Shown here one piece after another: positions 18,549 through 40,646 of a stretch of DNA of 41,123 bases (position 1 is the first letter of the stretch; every line of letters starts with the position of its first letter). Below the pieces are notes generated by a model that did no database searches, had not been told where the DNA came from, and saw only the letters and a list, made by a program, of their open reading frames with translations. The DNA lies in NCBI GenBank assembly GCA_964525635.1, contig CAZGJX010000026.1, positions 1 to 41,123 on the forward strand, in the 5' to 3' direction. The DNA is from an uncultured archaeon. GTDB taxonomy: Archaea; Asgardarchaeota; Lokiarchaeia; Sigyniarchaeales; SOKP01. Both the position numbers and the translations under genes were made by a program.

Positions 18549-19159
18549 AATAAAAATCTTTTCTTTGGTAATTAGAATTTAAAAATATAGAATCTTTTTA
18601 GTAGTATAAAATTATAAAATAAATTAAAATTTACCTTTTAAAATATTAATATTCATATTATTTTAAAATATATACACATCTTATTTTAAAATGAATATTG
18701 CAATTCTTGTATTATCCTTAAATATTTCAATGTCGATTATTAATAGATTTTTTTTTTGCAGATTACCTAGTAATTTTTAAATAGTATTAACAGATGTTTT
18801 CCAACCTTATTTGAGATACATTTAGTTCTTTTATTAAAATTTTAATAAATACTATAGTAATCATCAATTAATTGAAGTATATACGAAATTTTTCAATAAT
18901 CAAATATCAATTATCAATGAGTAAGATTATAATATAGTTATAACTCTATTTTTTTGGTATATAACCTATTTACATTTAATAAATAATATGTTTTCAATAA
19001 ATTTTTGTCGTAATTTTTTTTAACCTACCGCACAACTATCTTTCCAATTATATCAATAAGTTTAAATATCTCTTCAGATATAATATTATCTAAGTACTTT
19101 AAAAAATAAATCAAAAAAAAATTAAAACCTTAAATTTTAAAGTTTTTAAATAAAATAGT

Positions 19160-19165
19160 GGAGGA
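19160..19165 (+). promoter_or_regulatory. Shine-Dalgarno motif of the histone gene
   Basis: GGAGGA 7 nt upstream of ATG 19173. Confidence 0.6.
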
Positions 19166-19172
19166 AATAAAA

Positions 19173-19391
19173 ATGGCTAAAAAGAAACATACTTTCGCTT
19201 GGAGCCCAATTAGAAGATTAATGAAACAACAAGGTGCAAGCATTGTTGCAAGAGATGCAGTTGATCTATTAATTGATCACTTAGAAAAATCTGCTCGAGC
19301 CTTAACTGAGCAAGCTAAGAAATTTACTATGCACGCTAACAGAAAAAAGATAACAAAAAATGATCTTCTCTTATCAATTAAATATAAATAA
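19173..19391 (+). CDS. Archaeal histone (HMf-like fold)
   Basis: PIRRLMK...VARDA...HANRKKITKND. The ATG at 19173 is preceded by GGAGGA. Confidence 0.93.
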   Translation: MAKKKHTFAWSPIRRLMKQQGASIVARDAVDLLIDHLEKSARALTEQAKKFTMHANRKKITKNDLLLSIKYK

Positions 19392-19923
19392 ACTATAATG
19401 GGCTATATAATATTAATTTTTTTTTTTTCTTTATTTTCTATTATATTGAATCTTATATCTCAAAGTGAAAAGAATATATTTTTCAATTATTCTTAAACAA
19501 CTTTTATGTCTATAATAACAATTATTTGTACAAAAATCTAGTCAAATTCTCGAAAGATTTCGCAATGATCCAAAATAATACTTATTATAGTGAAGTATAT
19601 GAAAATTTAGCAAAGATAGAGGAAAGGTGGTGTGATCAGTGGTTTAAAATCAGAAGCAAAGATGGAGTTATCCTTCTTATAATTTAATGTTTATGGAGTA
19701 TACAATGAAGTGTGAAGAATGTGGCAAAGAAGTAAAAGGTCATAATAGTCTAGAATTTAGGAAATGATATGTTCTTAATTGATTAATTATAATATTACAT
19801 AATCATCTATTGATAATGCATTTTATAAGGATTGGTTAAAATTTAATACTCAACCATAATGTATTTTTAAATTATAAAACTAATTAAAATATAGAATATA
19901 ATAATTTTTTAAAGTGTATAAAT

Positions 19924-20562
19924 ATGGCAAACGAGGCTACTGAAGAGCCCCATAAAGTAAATGGTAAAGCAAAAAGGATTTTATTTGAAGCAATGGATTT
20001 GATTCTAAAAAATCTTAAAGAAAATATAACTCATTTAGATGCAAATTTCAAACACACACAAAAATTTATCAATATTGTACATGATGGATTAGTTAATAAT
20101 CGTCGATTTTTCTTACTTGCATCTGGGAGGAGTGCTTTTATTTTACAATGTTTTGCTACAAGATTAGTTCATTTAGGTGCAGAAGTCCATATGGTAACTA
20201 ATTTAGCAAGTATTCCTGCGATTCGAAAAAAAGATGTTTTAATCGTACTTTCAGGATCGGGAACTACTTCCATAGTAGTTAGTCTTTTAAAGAATTATGT
20301 AAATACAATAAAACCCCACGCAATAGTCTGCATCACAAGTCATCCTGAAACACGAATAGGAAGAATTGGTGATATTACTATAAAATTGATAGGTCGTACA
20401 AAAAAGGATAGAGATCCTTTTGAATATGCATCATTAACTCCAGAGGGAACTCAATTTGAACAAGCTTCATTTACATACCTAGATGCTATAATTGCAGAAT
20501 TAGCTATAAAATTAGGCAAAACAGATGAAGATCTTCTAAAAAAACATTCTGAGACTATTTAA
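19924..20562 (+). CDS. hxlB: 6-phospho-3-hexuloisomerase / SIS-domain protein
   Basis: SGRS, FATRLVHLG, SGSGTT and PEGTQFE motifs. Confidence 0.85.
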   Translation: MANEATEEPHKVNGKAKRILFEAMDLILKNLKENITHLDANFKHTQKFINIVHDGLVNNRRFFLLASGRSAFILQCFATRLVHLGAEVHMVTNLASIPAIRKKDVLIVLSGSGTTSIVVSLLKNYVNTIKPHAIVCITSHPETRIGRIGDITIKLIGRTKKDRDPFEYASLTPEGTQFEQASFTYLDAIIAELAIKLGKTDEDLLKKHSETI

Positions 20563-25140: not shown

Positions 25141-26107
25141 TTATGAAATAAAGAGATCTAAAATAAAAGATAAAAGGACAATTACTAAAATATAAAAAAT
25201 AATTATAAAGAAGACTTCTCTTCTTTTCTCTGGAAACTTTTTTTTAAACAATAATCTGAATGGCTTCATAAATAACCATTTAATAGTCTTGGGAAGAGGA
25301 TTTAAAAAAGATGTTTTACTTCTATAGTCCGAATATTTTTGGGATATTTTTCATTCATTAAAACTTCCTCATATAAGCAAATTCCAATAATTATCATTGA
25401 TGAAATAAACCAAATAAAGGTATATTCAAATATTATACCTCCACGAATAAGATCATTCAGTGTAAAACTTAAAAGATATACACCATACCTCCAAAAAAGA
25501 TACCCTAAATATTGAGGGTGTCGTGAATATTTATAGATTATATCATCAAATATATCTTTTTTTTCTATTATCCCTTGAAGCCAGTTAATTACACCAATTG
25601 AAAAAATGAATAGTCCAATTATTATGAATATATAACCAATACTTATCATGATAAACTCATAATTATCCCAAGAGTTTGTGAATGATTGAACAATTATAGA
25701 GGGTAATTTAAAAATAGAACCAAGAGATAATATATCAAATTCTAAATAAATAAAGGGTAAATTAATAAGCTGAAGGATTTGAATACCTAATAATAAAAAC
25801 ATAGAAAAAAAAAAATTTCCAAAAATAGGAAGAAAGAGAGTTAAATTTCCTAAAGATGATAAATACAATTTCTTAACTATAAATCCTAAAATGATTATAA
25901 CTATTATTATAAAAAGAAATATTAATCCTATTATTGTCCAAAAATCTAATTTATTTAGAGTATCAGGCCATTCCTCTCCAGGAAATATGGGGATTAAAAT
26001 TCCATTATTATATTATGAAATTCAATTGTAAGAAAAAACAAACTAATAGTAAATGATATAGCTGGGATAATTACGAGTGATTGAACTAATAACTTAGATT
26101 TTCTCAT
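25141..26107 (-). pseudogene. ICMT/PEMT-like membrane methyltransferase with two frameshifts
   Basis: YKYSRHPQYLG and EE motifs lie in the middle ORF 25302..25868. The N-terminus (ATG 26107, MRKSKLL...) shifts frame near 26005; the C-terminus (KYSDYRSKTSFLNPLP...) continues in another frame to a TAA at 25141. Confidence 0.75.
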
Positions 26108-26140
26108 TTTAAATTAATGTTTTAGTTTTTATTCAAGATA

Positions 26141-26902
26141 TTATTTTTTTTTGATATTATTTAAACTTAAACTTTTCATTCGTTCTTGTACTTCTTTATT
26201 TTGATATTTTTCAGTATTAATTAGGTAATCATTTATAATTTCACTTTCTATATCAGAAAATTTATCTTTTAACCAATGAATTCCTTTTGAAGTAAAGGGT
26301 ATCAATGAAAATAAATTCACATTATTTTTTTTAGCTAATTCTTCAGCTCCTTGTTCTCTATCTAAAATAACTATGATATTTTCACATTCTACTATTAGAC
26401 TTCGATTTAAAACTTCTATATTAAGTTGTTCACGAGCAATAAGTTTGCTATCTAATTTTGTTACCAAATCATCTATTAATGCAATTTTATCTCCATTTTC
26501 AATTACTCCTTCTACTAATTTGTGTTGACCATATTTAGATATCTTTTCTTGAAAATCATTAATATTTTTGATACCTTCCAGTTTTCTTGTATAACACATA
26601 GCAATATTATTTTCTAATGAAATTGCTGTTGCTATTGGAACTCCAGCAGAAGCTATTCCTATAATTCGATTTATTTCTTTACATTCTTCCTTAATTAATC
26701 GTCCCAAAGCATAACCTATTTTTCTTAAAATACTAGGAAAACTCCCTAAATTCCTTAAATTAATATATATTGGGCTCCACAGACCTGAAAACAAAGTCCA
26801 ACCCTCAGGTTTCGATTTATACCACGTATCGATCATATTTGAATCATATAATAATCCTAATATTTCTTTCCCAAGCTTATCTTTTTCTTCTTGCCAATTC
26901 AT
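26141..26902 (-). CDS. pyrE: Orotate phosphoribosyltransferase-like protein
   Basis: SGLWSPIYINLR, PRPP-binding loop IALIDDLVT, LDREQG. Confidence 0.85.
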   Translation of the reverse strand: MNWQEEKDKLGKEILGLLYDSNMIDTWYKSKPEGWTLFSGLWSPIYINLRNLGSFPSILRKIGYALGRLIKEECKEINRIIGIASAGVPIATAISLENNIAMCYTRKLEGIKNINDFQEKISKYGQHKLVEGVIENGDKIALIDDLVTKLDSKLIAREQLNIEVLNRSLIVECENIIVILDREQGAEELAKKNNVNLFSLIPFTSKGIHWLKDKFSDIESEIINDYLINTEKYQNKEVQERMKSLSLNNIKKK

Positions 26903-34885: not shown

Positions 34886-35701
34886 TCATTTTATTTGTCC
34901 ACCTAAATCTAATATAATGTGTTTTAATTTATTTAATACTACATCTACTTTTTCGTGGCAATTGGGATTATCAAAGCAAGTTATAGAAAGTTCTATTTCA
35001 ATTGATGGTCCACTTTTTGGATGGGTTTTTATCCAAAGATTAGGATAATTATCTTTTAATTCATTTATTAATGGTGCTATTTGAGATTCTCCAATCTCTG
35101 TAAAAATAAACCCTTTTTGAATAAAGATACGTTTATTTTCTTTTAATAAAGGTAAAATTGAATTTTTAAACATAGCTTTCATTTCTGTGGGGACTCCTGG
35201 TAAAATAAATATATTTGTATTTTTCTCTTTAATTAAAACTCCTGGTGCAGTTCCTATATTATTAGTTAGAGGTATTGATCCTTGAGGTAAAAAAGCCATT
35301 TTTTCTCTAGCTTTGGTCATTCCTTTTAGTTTTAATCTTCCAATCTTATTTAGTTTATTATAACTCTCCTCTATTGATCTATATGCTTGATTATTTAAAA
35401 TGAGTTCTTTCCCTAATCCTATGGCAATTCCATTATTCGTCATATCATCAAAAGTTGGACCCAAGACTTTAAGAACCTTTATTCCTTAAATTAATCCGCC
35501 CGATGAAATGATTATTTCTGGTTTCCTTTTTAAAATTTCTCTAATTACATTCCCAATTTCTCCTAAATTGTCTCCGATTGTAGTAATCCTTCTAACTTTA
35601 TGTCCATATTTAGATATTTTTCTTGCCATCCAATTTGAATTTGTATCTTGAGTGTGTCCAAGAAGTATCTCATTTCCAATTATAAGAAGTTCTATATCCA
35701 T
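34886..35701 (-). CDS. CinA N-terminal-like / molybdopterin-binding-fold protein (COG1058 nucleotide pyrophosphatase family), two exons: 35701-35492 and 35461-34886 (261 aa spliced)
   Basis: IGNEILLGHTQDTNSNW, GD, SGGL|GPTFDDMT, GTAPG and LPGVPTEM motifs. The two track ORFs are in one frame and are joined by removing 30 nt. Confidence 0.9.
35462..35491 (-). other. Candidate 30-nt bulge-helix-bulge mRNA intron
   Basis: AUUUAAGGAAUAAAGGUUCUUAAAGUCUUG with an in-frame UAA. Outer helix GGGC/GUCC, central helix GGAU/GUCU, bulges UA^A and UG^G, inner helix UUUAAG/CUUAAA. Confidence 0.85.
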
Positions 35702-35905
35702 AAAAATCGAAAATCATCTATATAATTTAATTATTCTGATAATTAGATTTAAAATATAAATAATAATATACCGAAAATAAAAAAAGAGGTTATATATTTT
35801 AGATTTATAAAATTATAAAAAAAAATGATTTTTATTGTTTATTTACTAAGATTTGAAATATCTTGATTTATTTCTATAAATAATAATTAAATAAATATTA
35901 TAAAA

Positions 35906-36472
35906 ATGAGTGGCAAATCAAAAACAATCGAAATAGATGATAGTGGGACAGGTGATTTAGTAGGAAATGCTTTTATAGCGCTTCATCTAATCAATACTGG
36001 TGAGATTATTTTTAAAACAGTTCCGGTTAAATTGTATAGGGAAGAGAATTTGAAAAAAAATTCTCCAAAAAAAAAAATTCTTGAACTTGTCAAGCAAGGT
36101 TTAAAAGAATTGAATTTTAATAAAGAGACAGATACAATAAAATTATGTAGAGGAGATTGTTTTGATTTAGTTCGTATTTATTTTAAAGGAGAAGGTATAA
36201 ATTATGAACCCACTTTAATAGAAGGAAAATTACAGGATGCTGTAGAGGGAAAGCTAGTTTCACATTTAAAAAAATTAGGGGTAAGATCTAAAAAATTATC
36301 TATTAAAAGCGGTGTAGAAAGATATTTTATCTTATTTAATTGGGTTTGTCGAGATTTTCCAAATCGAGAAAAATATGTAAAAACTGGTTTTAAAAAATGG
36401 AAAACGGTGTGGAGAGAAAGAGCAATTATAAATTATAATAAATATAAGAAATCCAAAGGAAAAGTATCCTAA
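35906..36472 (+). CDS. Hypothetical protein, possible RNase H-like fold
   Basis: N-terminal IEIDDSGTGDLVG resembles the RNase HII/HIII DE-x-G-x-G motif. Confidence 0.6.
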   Translation: MSGKSKTIEIDDSGTGDLVGNAFIALHLINTGEIIFKTVPVKLYREENLKKNSPKKKILELVKQGLKELNFNKETDTIKLCRGDCFDLVRIYFKGEGINYEPTLIEGKLQDAVEGKLVSHLKKLGVRSKKLSIKSGVERYFILFNWVCRDFPNREKYVKTGFKKWKTVWRERAIINYNKYKKSKGKVS

Positions 36473-36535
36473 CTAATTAATTAACTAAAACAATTTCTTT
36501 TATTCAAATAAAAAAATTTATATTAACCATAAATA

Positions 36536-37234
36536 TTAAAATTTAAGTTCAGTTCCACAATTAATACATTTTGTTGATTTAGCTGGAACTTCTTGTCCAC
36601 ATGCAAAACATATTTTATTTCCTTTTTGGTTATAATTTTCAAGTTGAATTTCATTATTGTTTGCACTAGAATTATTTTGTGCAAAAATGGACATATCTAT
36701 ATCTTGATTTATCCTTTTCTCAACATATTCAGGATCATGTGGTGCAAGAATTTCAAACTTATTTGAAGCTTTGATTTCCTTAACACCTTTAGGTAAATTT
36801 TTGAATTGTGAGTTTTCTATTATTTCAAAATCTCTTTGAATTGCATTAAATCTTTCTTCCTGTATTTTATTCTCATTAGTTTCTACATTTATTTCTTTTT
36901 GTATATCTGGTTCTTTAATCATTGCTGGTTTAGGAATATCTTCTCTTATTTCATTGCTCTTTTTTTCTTTTGGTTTTTGAATAATTATAGGTTTTATTTT
37001 TAGTTTATTTAATTCATTTTTTAGCTCTTTAATATGCTCAATTATACCTTTAGTTCTATTATATAACATATTTCTAAATGTAAACTCGAGTTTAGGATTT
37101 TTAGAAGCTTTTAAAGTTAATTCTGTGATTTCAATCCAAACATCAACAGCATCCTTTAGATTATTGTTTTTTTCAGCAATTTTTGCTTTATTAACTAATA
37201 AATTTAATATTTTATTGAATTTTGTGATATCCAT
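36536..37234 (-). CDS. MIT-like three-helix domain + linker + C-terminal Zn ribbon
   Basis: KAKIAEKNNNLKDAVDVW...IIEHIKELK pattern; C-terminal CFAC...CINC. Confidence 0.7.
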   Translation of the reverse strand: MDITKFNKILNLLVNKAKIAEKNNNLKDAVDVWIEITELTLKASKNPKLEFTFRNMLYNRTKGIIEHIKELKNELNKLKIKPIIIQKPKEKKSNEIREDIPKPAMIKEPDIQKEINVETNENKIQEERFNAIQRDFEIIENSQFKNLPKGVKEIKASNKFEILAPHDPEYVEKRINQDIDMSIFAQNNSSANNNEIQLENYNQKGNKICFACGQEVPAKSTKCINCGTELKF

Positions 37235-37474
37235 AATATTTAACCTTTTTATTCAATTTAAACTAATAAAATCAAATATAAAAATTATAGAGTTTTTGCA
37301 TATATTCTCTTAAATCCATCAGATCTGCTTTGATTAAAATAATATAAAATAATAAACTTAAATATTAATACTTATTTAATAATAAACGTTAATAAAAGCA
37401 AATTCTATAATAATAATTTCTAATATCTAATATAGCTTCATCATTATAAATTAAATTATATGTTGCTAAAGTAA

Positions 37475-39361
37475 ATGTCGATAACTCCATTATCCCAAAA
37501 TGAAATTGAAAGATTACAAGATTTTATTGAAAAAAATGGTTGGTATTTAAAGGGATATATAGAGAATTACTTTCGATATAGTTTAAGAAAAGATAAAACA
37601 ATAATACTTACTATCAAATTTCCTGTTGTTCTTCCTGTTCATTTAAATATTCCGTTTGAAGTTGCATGTTTTAGAATTTCTTTAGCTTTTAAATACTGGA
37701 ATTTAGATACAAATATATTTAATTTAATTCAATATCTTCAAAAGAATTTGAGAGATCTTGCTTTACAAGTAACAATCGATTATGATTTCCCTATAAAAGG
37801 TAAAGAAACTGTTCTAATTGAAATCTTAAATTCAATAATCCCAGATTTAATTAAAAACGAAAATGAAAAAGCATGGAAAAACAGAATTCGGATTTCATTG
37901 ATGAATAAAGAAAAACTTTTTGATAATTTTAAAACTGAAGAAATTAGAAATATAGTTAATGAACTAAAAGAAATGGGATTAAATCCTACTTTTAATCATC
38001 CTTGGGAATTAAATAAAGGAATTCCTAAATTAAGAACTTCAGAGACCTTATTCTTTTCAAATGATGAATTATTTGATGAATTCTTTATATTAGAGAAGGG
38101 TTTTTTTACTTATTTTAAAGATCTAAATTTCAAAAAATTTTATATTAGATCCTTATTTGAAAGTTATAGCCCTTATATCCTTTTAAAGATATTCGAAGAT
38201 AATTCTGAGATACAATTAAATAATTTAATAAAAAATTGGGTCAAATTTTCAAGATTAATTCTAAATTCTATCATTGAGATAATAAATAAAAATGATTTCA
38301 GCGAAAATTTATTGGTTTCATTCAGACCAGAAAAAGCATTAGATGAAGAAGATTTTCTAGAGGAAGAAAATAATTTTCCTTTTTCCACACTTCATTATGA
38401 ATGTTTAGTTGCAAAAGAATTATTTCCTCTACATAATGATTTATTAACTCTACCACCAAGTGATTTTGAAGTAATTGAACATTTAAATTACTACACAAAA
38501 GCAGAAGAGTTAATGAATAATTATAAATTTAAAGAAGCAACTGCAATTTTGACAGAAGCTCTTAAGATTTTTAATAAACATAAGCAAAAAAAGATGGTTG
38601 TATCTATATTATTATTTTTAAATAAAATAGCTTTAATATTAGACCAAAAGGATCTGGCAATTAATTATTTAGAAAACGCTCTTTCAGTTGCTAAATCGGG
38701 GGAAGTTCCAATAAGTTATATTTTAAAAATTCATTATGAAGTTGCTAGAATATATTATAAATTGAAATTTTATGCTCAGGCAAGAGAACATTATGAGATT
38801 ATAGATAAATTTCTTGAAAGTGAAGAATTATCATTTAAAGAAAAAGAAGAATATCAAGGACTTTCTCTCATATTTTTAGGCTTAATTCATCAAGAATTGG
38901 ATAATATCCCAAGAGCAAAAGAAAGTTTCAAAAAAGCATTCCAAATAACGAATAACTCCATTAAAGTAAAATTAAAATATTATCTAATGAGGGCAAAATA
39001 TTATAAAACTAAAGGACAATTACCATTAGTTCAAAAAATGTTAAGATTAGGATTAAAGGATATAAATGTTAGTTCTGTAGATGATAATTCAAGAAAAATT
39101 CTAATTAATCTATTTATGGAGATTGCTGAATATTATATTCATGATAGACCAGATAGAAAGAAGGCAGAATATTACCTTAAAGGTATAAGAGATTCTATAA
39201 ATTTAACAACAATCTCAGGTATTAAGAAATCTATTAGATGGAATTTATTAATGAATGATTTTTATAAATTTTTAATAAAAGATCAAGATAAAGCTCAATT
39301 TTACTTTAAAAAAAGTCAAACTCTACAAAATCAATTAAGAATTATAGGGTTATCAGAATAA
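37475..39361 (+). CDS. TPR-repeat protein
   Basis: C-terminal TPR-like helices (AINYLENAL, AREHYE, LGLIHQEL...AKESFKKAF). Confidence 0.8.
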   Translation: MSITPLSQNEIERLQDFIEKNGWYLKGYIENYFRYSLRKDKTIILTIKFPVVLPVHLNIPFEVACFRISLAFKYWNLDTNIFNLIQYLQKNLRDLALQVTIDYDFPIKGKETVLIEILNSIIPDLIKNENEKAWKNRIRISLMNKEKLFDNFKTEEIRNIVNELKEMGLNPTFNHPWELNKGIPKLRTSETLFFSNDELFDEFFILEKGFFTYFKDLNFKKFYIRSLFESYSPYILLKIFEDNSEIQLNNLIKNWVKFSRLILNSIIEIINKNDFSENLLVSFRPEKALDEEDFLEEENNFPFSTLHYECLVAKELFPLHNDLLTLPPSDFEVIEHLNYYTKAEELMNNYKFKEATAILTEALKIFNKHKQKKMVVSILLFLNKIALILDQKDLAINYLENALSVAKSGEVPISYILKIHYEVARIYYKLKFYAQAREHYEIIDKFLESEELSFKEKEEYQGLSLIFLGLIHQELDNIPRAKESFKKAFQITNNSIKVKLKYYLMRAKYYKTKGQLPLVQKMLRLGLKDINVSSVDDNSRKILINLFMEIAEYYIHDRPDRKKAEYYLKGIRDSINLTTISGIKKSIRWNLLMNDFYKFLIKDQDKAQFYFKKSQTLQNQLRIIGLSE

Positions 39362-39377
39362 AATAAATAAAAATAAT

Positions 39378-39581
39378 TTAATTCGTATATTTATTTCTTT
39401 TTGCTCCAATAGAATTTGGTTGACCAGAATATTTTTGCTGTACAAATCGACTTTTATAAAGTTCTCTATAACGCATTCTTGGAGGTTTTTTTGAATTTGA
39501 ATTAACTCCTGTTCTTTCAATTTTAGGAGTTTGCATTTTAACTTTTCCTGCTTTTGTTAAACTTCCGTGAGAGCCTGGCAT
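39378..39581 (-). CDS. rps30e: Ribosomal protein eS30
   Basis: HGSLTKAGKVKMQTPKI signature. Confidence 0.95.
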   Translation of the reverse strand: MPGSHGSLTKAGKVKMQTPKIERTGVNSNSKKPPRMRYRELYKSRFVQQKYSGQPNSIGAKRNKYTN

Positions 39582-39746
39582 TAATTATCACTTGTATTGA
39601 AATATTAAATTTTATATTATTAATAAGGAAATGAATAAAATAAATTTTATTAAATTAAATTATAAAGAATGTGATTTAAGTATAAAAATTTAATTTGAAT
39701 AATTCTCTTTTATTATTAGAGAAAAATAAAAATATTTTTTGAGAAT

Positions 39747-40259
39747 ATGAGTGCAGAACCACCAAATTTAGAAAATAGAACCACAATGGCTTTATGTCTT
39801 TTACTTTTTATAGTTTCTGCTATAATAGCTATTTTAAGTTACTTAATCTTTGATGTTTTCTGGATTATGATTATTCCACTCGCATTTTTAATTGTTATAA
39901 TTATCTCCCAATCATTTTCAAGATTATTTTGGAATACAAATAAAAAATGTCCTAGATGTAGAGAGTCTGTAAGTATATATAGTGAATTTTGTCCAAATTG
40001 TGGGTTTAAACTAATCATATCATGCCCTGAGTGTCAAGGCATTATGAGTTTTGATGATCCCATCTGTAAAACTTGTGGTTATAGATTTAATAAAATCTAT
40101 ATCCCGGATGATGCTGAAATTGAATTAGCATATGATGAAAAAAAAAATAAACAAATTGTAGAACAACTTAATTTTTGTCCTCATTGTGGAGTACAATTAG
40201 AGATAAATAAGCAAAACCTAAGATTTTGTGATCAATGTGGGAGTAGAATTAATTTATAG
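39747..40259 (+). CDS. Membrane protein (2 TM) with multiple Zn ribbons
   Basis: Two hydrophobic helices followed by six CxxC motifs. Confidence 0.85.
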   Translation: MSAEPPNLENRTTMALCLLLFIVSAIIAILSYLIFDVFWIMIIPLAFLIVIIISQSFSRLFWNTNKKCPRCRESVSIYSEFCPNCGFKLIISCPECQGIMSFDDPICKTCGYRFNKIYIPDDAEIELAYDEKKNKQIVEQLNFCPHCGVQLEINKQNLRFCDQCGSRINL

Positions 40260-40542
40260 ATGATATATTTTTCACATCTTTCAACGATCTATTATTAAAG
40301 GATAACTAAAGTGTATTTTTAAATAATTGCTCTAAAACTTTAAATGAGAAAGATATAGAACTAATTCAATAATTTATAAATATAGAATTTTATAAGAAAT
40401 AATTATTCCTTTATTTTATTAATTAATAAGTATATACACCCATGCTCGTTGGTTTGGATTAATTGATCTCAAAAATGATAAATAATTTAATTGATCATAA
40501 TTTTACAAAGATACAATTATATATATTACACCATTTAAATAT

Positions 40543-40646
40543 GGGGACTTGGCGCAGCCCGGTAGCGCGATAGCCTCCAGAGTTATAATTAAGAGAATTT
40601 TTCTCTTAATGAGGAATGGTCGAGGGTTCAATTCCCTCAGTCCCCA
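40543..40646 (+). tRNA. tRNA-Trp(CCA) with a 30-nt insertion at the start of the variable region
   Basis: Acceptor stem GGGGACT/AGTCCCC-A; D stem GCGC/GCGC; anticodon stem ATAGC/GTTAT with loop CT-CCA-GA; T arm GAGGG-TTCAATT-CCCTC. There are 35 nt between the anticodon and T arms instead of about 5. Confidence 0.9.

Follow-up and report, generated by a model that had tools for sequence, protein, structure and literature searches.

How a protein gene and a transfer RNA (tRNA) gene of one archaeon came to be interrupted by inserts of equal length and similar shape, and whether such inserts are introns with a common origin, are the questions raised by a 41,123-nt stretch of DNA from an uncultured archaeon of the Lokiarchaeia (order Sigyniarchaeales). 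This stretch, hereafter the window, is contig C26 (CAZGJX010000026.1) of a 4.45 Mb assembly (GCA_964525635.1) with 245 contigs and 26.8% GC, to which we refer as genome G000. One 30-nt insert lies in a cinA-like gene and the other in the gene for tRNA-Trp(CCA) (Table 1). A first-pass annotation, made from the sequence alone, had seen in both inserts the likeness of a single micro-intron family and suggested that a short intron may have moved between tRNA and mRNA targets.

Confirmed splicing of archaeal pre-mRNA is limited, in the literature that we searched, to cbf5 of the Crenarchaeota (PMC2738675), and no paper on mRNA introns of Asgard archaea was found there. The splicing endonuclease EndA of Asgard archaea is reported to be an (alpha-beta)2 enzyme with an L1 loop and a broad substrate range (PMC5829648). 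Genome G000 encodes the corresponding machinery in two genes with the PF01974 EndA domain (C18:18795-19022 and C105:10281-10529) and one RtcB gene (C119). Taking the explanation as a whole, we consider it likely that the cinA and tRNA-Trp inserts are of one class by mechanism and by size, with no demonstrable relationship in sequence, and that a genome-wide population of mini-introns of 29-32 nt interrupts at least 11 protein genes and most tRNA genes of this organism.

An intron in the cinA-like mRNA

The window is archaeal, encoding ribosomal protein S30e at 39378-39581, and a protein search identified the CinA homologues nearest to that of the window as proteins of Promethearchaeota/Lokiarchaeota metagenome-assembled genomes (MAGs). 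The upstream open reading frame of the cinA-like gene (35486-35701, minus strand) covers positions 2-66 of the 144 in profile PF00994 (MoCF_biosynth) and positions 7-72 of the 264 in NCBIfam PRK01215, and exon 2 continues with positions 67-143 and 73-260 of the same two profiles. Profile coordinates therefore abut exactly across the insert (66 to 67 and 72 to 73), which indicates that no part of the protein is missing and that the 30 nt are extra. The insert splits the conserved motif SGGL/GPT (here and below a slash marks a junction), inside the GGLGPT signature of a single domain, and in the unspliced message an in-frame UAA is reached two codons into it. At exactly these boundaries, with an intron length (L) of 30 nt, our scorer for the bulge-helix-bulge (BHB) motif returned a perfect result, with 4/4 pairs in the central helix, 4 bp in the outer helix and 8 bp in the inner helix. 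The junctions accordingly show the complete hBHBh' arrangement, in which a 4-bp helix lies between two 3-nt bulges and further helices flank them.

Comparison with 40 relatives showed that six genomes, belonging to three genera, carry an insert at this codon junction, namely G000 and its congeners G001, G002 and G003, G015 from another genus and G011 from a third. The gene is uninterrupted at 23 other loci compared, and G021, a congener of G011, is without the insert. Half of the six copies have a length of 29 nt, which shifts the frame, while both exons are still open and conserved, so that the insert must leave the RNA. The BHB is kept in the five other genomes (loci L002, L003, L004, L010 and L014; scores 3-4 / 3-6 / 7-8), and pairing in the hairpin and in both exon-intron helices is preserved through changes on both sides of the pairs. 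The spliced reading is SGGLGPT(F/Y)DDMT in all six insert-bearing genomes, as it is in the uninterrupted orthologues. These six introns are clearly homologous to one another, with a mean column identity of 79%. Their MAFFT alignment places a 1-nt gap in one hairpin arm only and thereby makes the pairs inconsistent. The backbone of the CinA gene tree is unresolved and does not separate one gain with losses from several gains; there may have been a single origin with later losses.

The cinA insert is a genuine intron of the archaeal splicing-endonuclease type. Its removal would proceed through folding of the pre-mRNA into the canonical BHB, cleavage by an (alpha-beta)2-type endonuclease within the two 3-nt bulges (UA/A and UG/G) and joining of the exons by RtcB, yielding ...SGGL-GPTFDD... 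in a 261-residue NMN-deamidase-related/CinA-type protein. What the sequences show is the motif, a protein restored exactly, and conservation; the cleavage and ligation themselves are inferred.

An intron in tRNA-Trp with a probably relaxed motif

With default settings ARAGORN found no tRNA in the window, and with its intron search switched on it misread the second gene as Leu(TAA) with a 14-nt intron; the gene was instead identified as tRNA-Trp through Rfam and orthologues. Rfam model RF00005 matches 40543-40646 with 56.1 bits, the insert falling after the anticodon stem and before the variable loop in this match, and the anticodon loop CUCCAGA specifies Trp. The tRNA-Trp gene of G009 is intron-less, reading GUUGU-UGGUC across the site with a variable loop UGGUC. 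This orthologue fixes the boundaries of the insert, and they are those that the first-pass annotation had chosen. Removal of the insert leaves a standard cloverleaf that matches the intron-less orthologue. Within the genus of the window, pair 27:43 of the tRNA covaries (A27:U43 / U27:A43), and the intron hairpin keeps its pairing through two double-sided changes in G001-G003. An intron of this sequence occurs only in that genus, as compared with three genera for the cinA intron. A reading of the insert as a long variable arm was rejected, since 35 nt would be too long and an intron-less orthologue exists.

At L = 30 the BHB scorer found no strict motif in the tRNA-Trp gene, and the best local fit was 3/4 + 1 + 9 at L = 28. 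The minimum free energy structure that RNAfold predicts for the precursor contains a CCUC:GAGG helix in G000, G002 and G003, stacked on the intron hairpin; in this fold a 10-nt bulge ends at the 5' site, and an AAUG bulge contains the 3' site. Among tRNA inserts of Asgard archaea located in the variable region, only 21% have the canonical motif (preprint 10.64898/2026.10.13.758758), and the relaxed motif predicted here fits that low share. The Trp insert is a genuine archaeal intron of the splicing-endonuclease type, with what would be a relaxed BHB. Its precursor is probably cut by the same enzyme as the cinA pre-mRNA, which would recognise the 4-bp CCUC:GAGG helix stacked on the hairpin and would cut at the end of the enlarged 10-nt bulge on the 5' side and in the AAU(G) bulge on the 3' side.

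The intron's tail (GAGG AA) has its complement in the CCUC of the anticodon stem-loop, approximately where a canonical intron at position 37/38 pairs, and the intron may be a relic of one that slid from 37/38 to 43/44. A similar complementarity was seen for the intron of a tRNA-Lys gene at C185:4179-4282. In the tRNA-Trp genes of relatives, introns of about 30 nt are located in the D arm, at or near 37/38, at position 43/44, in the T loop or at several of these sites together. Relatives with differently placed introns are L035 (G011), L036 (G006), L037 (G024), L040 (G004), L041 (G014), L043 (G020) and L038 (G028), and the gene of G011 apparently has three introns. The orthologous sequences point to a very fast turnover of intron position in this tRNA.

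Mini-introns elsewhere in the genome

The first-pass annotation predicted that more such inserts may hide among the apparent pseudogenes of the genome, and this is borne out by ten further mRNA mini-introns (Table 1). We searched for BHB-bounded inserts that interrupt open frames, inspected the junction peptides and then applied Pfam checks. A strict scan of the genome for a BHB together with an open frame yielded 398 site clusters, flat in their length distribution and mostly at gene boundaries. When the scan was relaxed and a codon-usage score was applied, 329 clusters resulted, from which true introns were picked by junction motif and then by Pfam. One candidate, at C88:5304, was dropped for want of support, and the sites at C6:7457 and C1:10220 are further candidates.

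The mRNA mini-introns have lengths of 29-32 nt, like the non-canonical tRNA introns (28-32 nt by reading); four of the six anticodon-loop introns measured are 18-20 nt long, and the other two have 23 and 29 nt. A 5-nt loop AWWTC is present in five of the 11 mRNA introns (ATATC twice and AATTC three times, at C27:33768, C62:3369, C178:567, C4:30164 and C1:63069) compared with 0.23% of decoy hairpins. This loop occurs in neither the cinA nor the Trp insert, nor in the eight tRNA introns compared; a tRNA-Trp intron of G011 has the loop TAATTCA.

The verified mRNA introns lie in the most strongly conserved, Gly-rich motifs, namely GHVDHG/KTT, WDI/AGQ, GIDEAG/RGP and WCGPC/K as well as KHS/TGG, VGAL/GCE, GGL/GPT and GHVLLE/GVPGLGKT, a pattern in which ascertainment bias is likely because the sites were chosen by recognisable motifs. 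G-rich codons may supply the exonic helices of the BHB in a genome of 27% GC, or conserved sites may be targets of homing.

Relationship between the two inserts

Both 30-mers lie exactly where the first-pass annotation had placed them, each found once, and its description of them was accurate. Their gapless identity is 14/30. In both, a 23-nt hairpin occupies positions 2-24, with TTAAG and TCTTAA among its arm sequences and a closing pair that is T-A in one case and A-T in the other. The shared layout of 1 + 23 + 4 + 2 nt is generic for BHB introns: 1 nt in a bulge, then the inner hairpin, then the 4 nt that form the 3' strand of the central helix, and lastly 2 bulge nt. We suggest that this layout is imposed by the enzyme and by a stable AT-rich hairpin, and it is no evidence of common descent.

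An identity of 14/30 has a probability of 0.06 against shuffles of the tRNA insert and of 0.04-0.07 against pair-preserving shuffles. Among 7382 natural 23-nt hairpins from the same genome, 9.7% match the cinA insert at 14/30 or better, and when gaps are allowed in the scoring, 8.75% of 50760 hairpin decoys equal or exceed the cinA-Trp pair. The cinA insert scores higher against the introns of tRNA-Glu and tRNA-Cys than against the Trp insert, and the Trp insert is closer to the RagA-like and Rab-like mRNA introns than to the cinA insert. As a group, pairs of one mRNA and one tRNA intron are not above decoys (p = 0.17). Within genomes G002 and G003 the cinA-Trp pair scores 12.5 and 14.5, which does not improve on G000. 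A covariance model built from both inserts (R1) matched nothing in the 4.45 Mb genome beyond the two sequences on which it was trained, and neither insert has another copy there at 24/30 matches or better.

Neither membership in one family nor movement between tRNA and mRNA is supported: the similarity lies within the range of natural AT-rich hairpins, the covariance model has no third member, near-copies are lacking, mRNA-tRNA pairs do not exceed decoys as a group, and the two introns differ in distribution. Both outcomes that the first-pass annotation had itself named as speaking against its idea, a similarity no better than that of random AT-rich hairpins and a lack of further family members, were obtained at sequence level in the shuffle and hairpin controls and in the covariance search. 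Among AT-rich hairpin introns, a similar layout and an identity of about 47% are no evidence of intron mobility.

Several observations weigh against our reading of the two inserts as introns of one class that are not demonstrably related. The spliced cinA junction pattern was absent from the metagenome contigs searched, and the protein collection held no near-identical uninterrupted CinA that could reflect a transcript. In tRNA-Trp, if the boundaries are set so that the variable loop has 5 nt, no partner for the central helix lies beside the 5' site, and the predicted CCUC:GAGG helix of the precursor comes from energy calculation, both of its strands being invariant and thus without covariation. 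Pairs of mRNA introns score slightly above decoys, although such pairs are not independent, and an old common origin could lie behind the inserts, as 30 AT-rich nucleotides lose detectable similarity fast.

An alternative takes both inserts for diverged descendants of a single mobile micro-intron, which would have reached tRNA as well as mRNA targets either through reverse splicing and subsequent reverse transcription or through homing with later decay. This account draws on the equal length and layout, the purine-rich 5' arm and pyrimidine-rich 3' arm and the 14/30 identity, on the size of about 30 nt common to non-canonical tRNA introns and mRNA introns as against the mostly shorter anticodon-loop introns, on the scores of mRNA-mRNA pairs slightly above decoys and on the AWWTC loop of five of the 11 mRNA introns, to which the TAATTCA loop of the G011 tRNA-Trp intron may be added. 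It has to contend with the hairpin controls, the solitary covariance model, the mRNA-tRNA comparison, the same-genome scores in G002 and G003 and the absence of the AWWTC loop from both inserts, and a census of Asgard tRNA introns reports no copying between tRNA genes (preprint 10.64898/2026.10.13.758758). We regard it as unlikely.

A wider version, to which we give no greater credence, would have the tRNA and mRNA mini-introns of about 30 nt in this Asgard family form one still-active population that colonises any BHB-forming transcript, with the cinA and Trp inserts as diverged members and the AWWUC tip as a handle for a spreading or splicing factor. If it were true, an active intron population of this kind would represent a simple precursor state, based on protein enzymes, of the widespread mRNA splicing of eukaryotes in their closest archaeal relatives.

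Other readings of the cinA interruption

The cinA locus could alternatively be a pseudogene, or a split gene giving two polypeptides, in which the hairpin is an incidental insertion. The early stop in the unspliced frame, an in-frame TTG at the 3' end of the insert and public annotations that record the C-terminal piece only, at 185-192 aa, would all agree with this. Both pieces, however, are open and conserved in six genomes of three genera at 27% GC, where stops arise easily, and the break falls inside the signature of a single domain. Moreover, the 29-nt versions put the second piece in a different frame, and a conserved BHB with compensatory changes would have no role, which makes this reading very improbable in comparison with a spliced intron.

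Translational bypass is known from T4 gene 60 and the mitochondrial byp elements, and here a ribosome leaving at UUA and landing 27 nt downstream, at UUG, would produce that same protein in G000, where the take-off codon, a nearby stop, a hairpin and a matching UUG before GGU CCA are all present, but we consider it barely credible since the UUA/UUG match is confined to G000 (the codon before GGC is AAG or AAA in G001-G003 and UAA in G015), a 29-nt gap is incompatible with it and the model has no need of the conserved exonic BHB helices.

Comparison with known systems

The closest precedent for the cinA intron comes from Desulfurococcales and Sulfolobales, whose cbf5 pre-mRNA carries a BHB intron (Watanabe 2002; Yoshinari 2006; Yokobori 2009, PMC2738675). 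Both are short BHB-bounded introns in an archaeal coding sequence, in lineages with a hetero-oligomeric endonuclease, and the patchy occurrence of the cinA intron among relatives likewise implies gain and loss. The differences are that the host is a gene with a CinA/MoCF-binding domain in an Asgard archaeon of Loki type, that the cinA intron is known here from DNA sequence, and that cbf5 is a single case, whereas the cinA intron is one of at least 11 in one genome with a uniform size of 29-32 nt.

The Trp insert has features in common with the non-canonical introns known from tRNAs of Thermoproteales and Asgard archaea (Marck and Grosjean 2003; Sugahara 2008; 10.64898/2026.10.13.758758), namely its location outside 37/38, its size of about 30 nt, its predicted relaxed motif, its being missed or misread by standard tools and the turnover of its position. 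It differs in that it lies in the variable region and that its predicted central helix uses the anticodon loop, so that the 5' bulge has 10 nt. The idea of one intron sequence copied into different hosts, which the first-pass annotation invoked, corresponds to the transposed tRNA-intron families of Thermoproteales, where, in the account of Fujishima 2010 given by the preprint 10.64898/2026.10.13.758758, 28% of introns fall into families with 80% or more identity that extend over several tRNA types. In contrast to those families, the cinA and Trp inserts are 47% identical, at chance level, and are without copies.

In the unconventional splicing of HAC1/XBP1, IRE1 acts together with a tRNA ligase or RtcB in a stress-regulated manner. 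The cinA case is similar in that a short mRNA intron would be removed without a spliceosome, by cuts at paired stem-loops or bulges, and the exons would be sealed by a ligase of the tRNA pathway. Unlike HAC1/XBP1, the endonuclease would be EndA rather than IRE1, and splicing of cinA is presumably constitutive, being needed for any protein to be made.

On this evidence, an enzyme gene of an Asgard archaeon would be expressible only if a tRNA-type intron leaves its mRNA, and it would be one of at least 11 such genes in the genome. Splicing of mRNA by the tRNA machinery would thereby be routine in the lineage closest to eukaryotes. There is also a practical cost, as gene callers give truncated or hypothetical proteins and tRNA finders miss or misname the tRNA. 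In public gene calls the intron-bearing CinA proteins consist of the C-terminal exon only (P0001, P0002, P0003, P0023 and P0108; 185-192 aa; 34886-35464 in the window), compared with about 262 aa for uninterrupted homologues, and one such C-terminal call in a Lokiarchaeota MAG is named 'hypothetical protein'.

Feature coordinates and additional observations

Table 1. Interrupted genes and mini-introns of genome G000. Coordinates without a contig label refer to the window.
Feature	Location	Strand	Length	Remarks
cinA-like gene, exon 1	35492..35701	-	70 codons	ends ...SSGGL
cinA-like gene, exon 2	34886..35461	-	191 codons + stop	starts GPTFDD...
cinA mRNA mini-intron	35462..35491	-	30 nt	1 bulge nt + 23-nt hairpin + 4-nt central-helix strand GUCU + 2 bulge nt
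cinA whole hBHBh' motif	35457..35501	-		exonic outer helix GGGC (35498-35501) : GUCC (35457-35460)
cinA central helix	35494-35497 : 35464-35467	-		GGAU : GUCU; bulges UA/A and UG/G
tRNA-Trp(CCA), 5' exon	40543..40586	+		acceptor, D arm, complete anticodon arm
tRNA-Trp intron	40587..40616	+	30 nt	after position 43, variable region; 9-bp hairpin + GAGG AA tail
CCUC, last stem nt + anticodon-loop nt	40574..40577	+		predicted precursor partner of intron GAGG (40611-40614)
tRNA-Trp, 3' exon	40617..40646	+		variable loop UGGUC, T arm, acceptor, discriminator A
Rab-like GTPase mini-intron	C27:33768-33797		30 nt	Ras Pfam coordinates meet (54, 56)
RagA-like GTPase mini-intron	C62:3369-3399		31 nt	Gtr1_RagA coordinates nearly meet (41, 54)
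RadA mini-intron	C44:13663-13693		31 nt	Rad51 coordinates meet (196, 198)
Thioredoxin mini-intron	C1:45712-45743		32 nt	profile coordinates nearly meet (33, 36)
AMP phosphorylase mini-intron	C109:3066-3095		30 nt	exon 1 matches the preceding N-terminal domain; exon 2 enters the catalytic-domain profile at 11
aIF2-gamma mini-intron	C142:4667-4695		29 nt	recognised junction motif only
E1/ThiF-like mini-intron	C178:567-596		30 nt	only downstream exon scored, ThiF from position 32
RNase HII mini-intron	C4:30164-30193		30 nt	only downstream exon scored, RNase_HII from position 9
DnaG mini-intron	C102:12429-12459		31 nt	recognised junction motif only
MoxR mini-intron	C1:63069-63099		31 nt	located by motif only

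Two weak and odd tRNA-like genes, with Rfam scores of 35 and 43 bits, lie at C16:37841-38034. The anticodon loop around CCA is oversized in one of them, and the pair may represent additional disrupted tRNAs or pseudogenes. Contig C54 (27.6 kb), which at 26.5% GC is like the rest of the genome, contains two facing arrays (19100-20390 and 25170-26270) with about 22 tRNA genes, nearly all intron-free, and carries another tRNA-Trp(CCA). The tRNA genes scattered elsewhere in G000 are mostly interrupted, unlike those of the arrays, which could be of mobile-element or viral origin or constitute a second, intron-free tRNA set.

The window also encodes two proteins with C-terminal or multiple zinc-ribbon (DZR) domains at 36536-37234 (minus strand) and 39747-40259 (plus strand), one of which has an N-terminal membrane segment. 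The gene at 37475-39361 specifies a TPR protein of 628 aa in which no further domain is recognisable.

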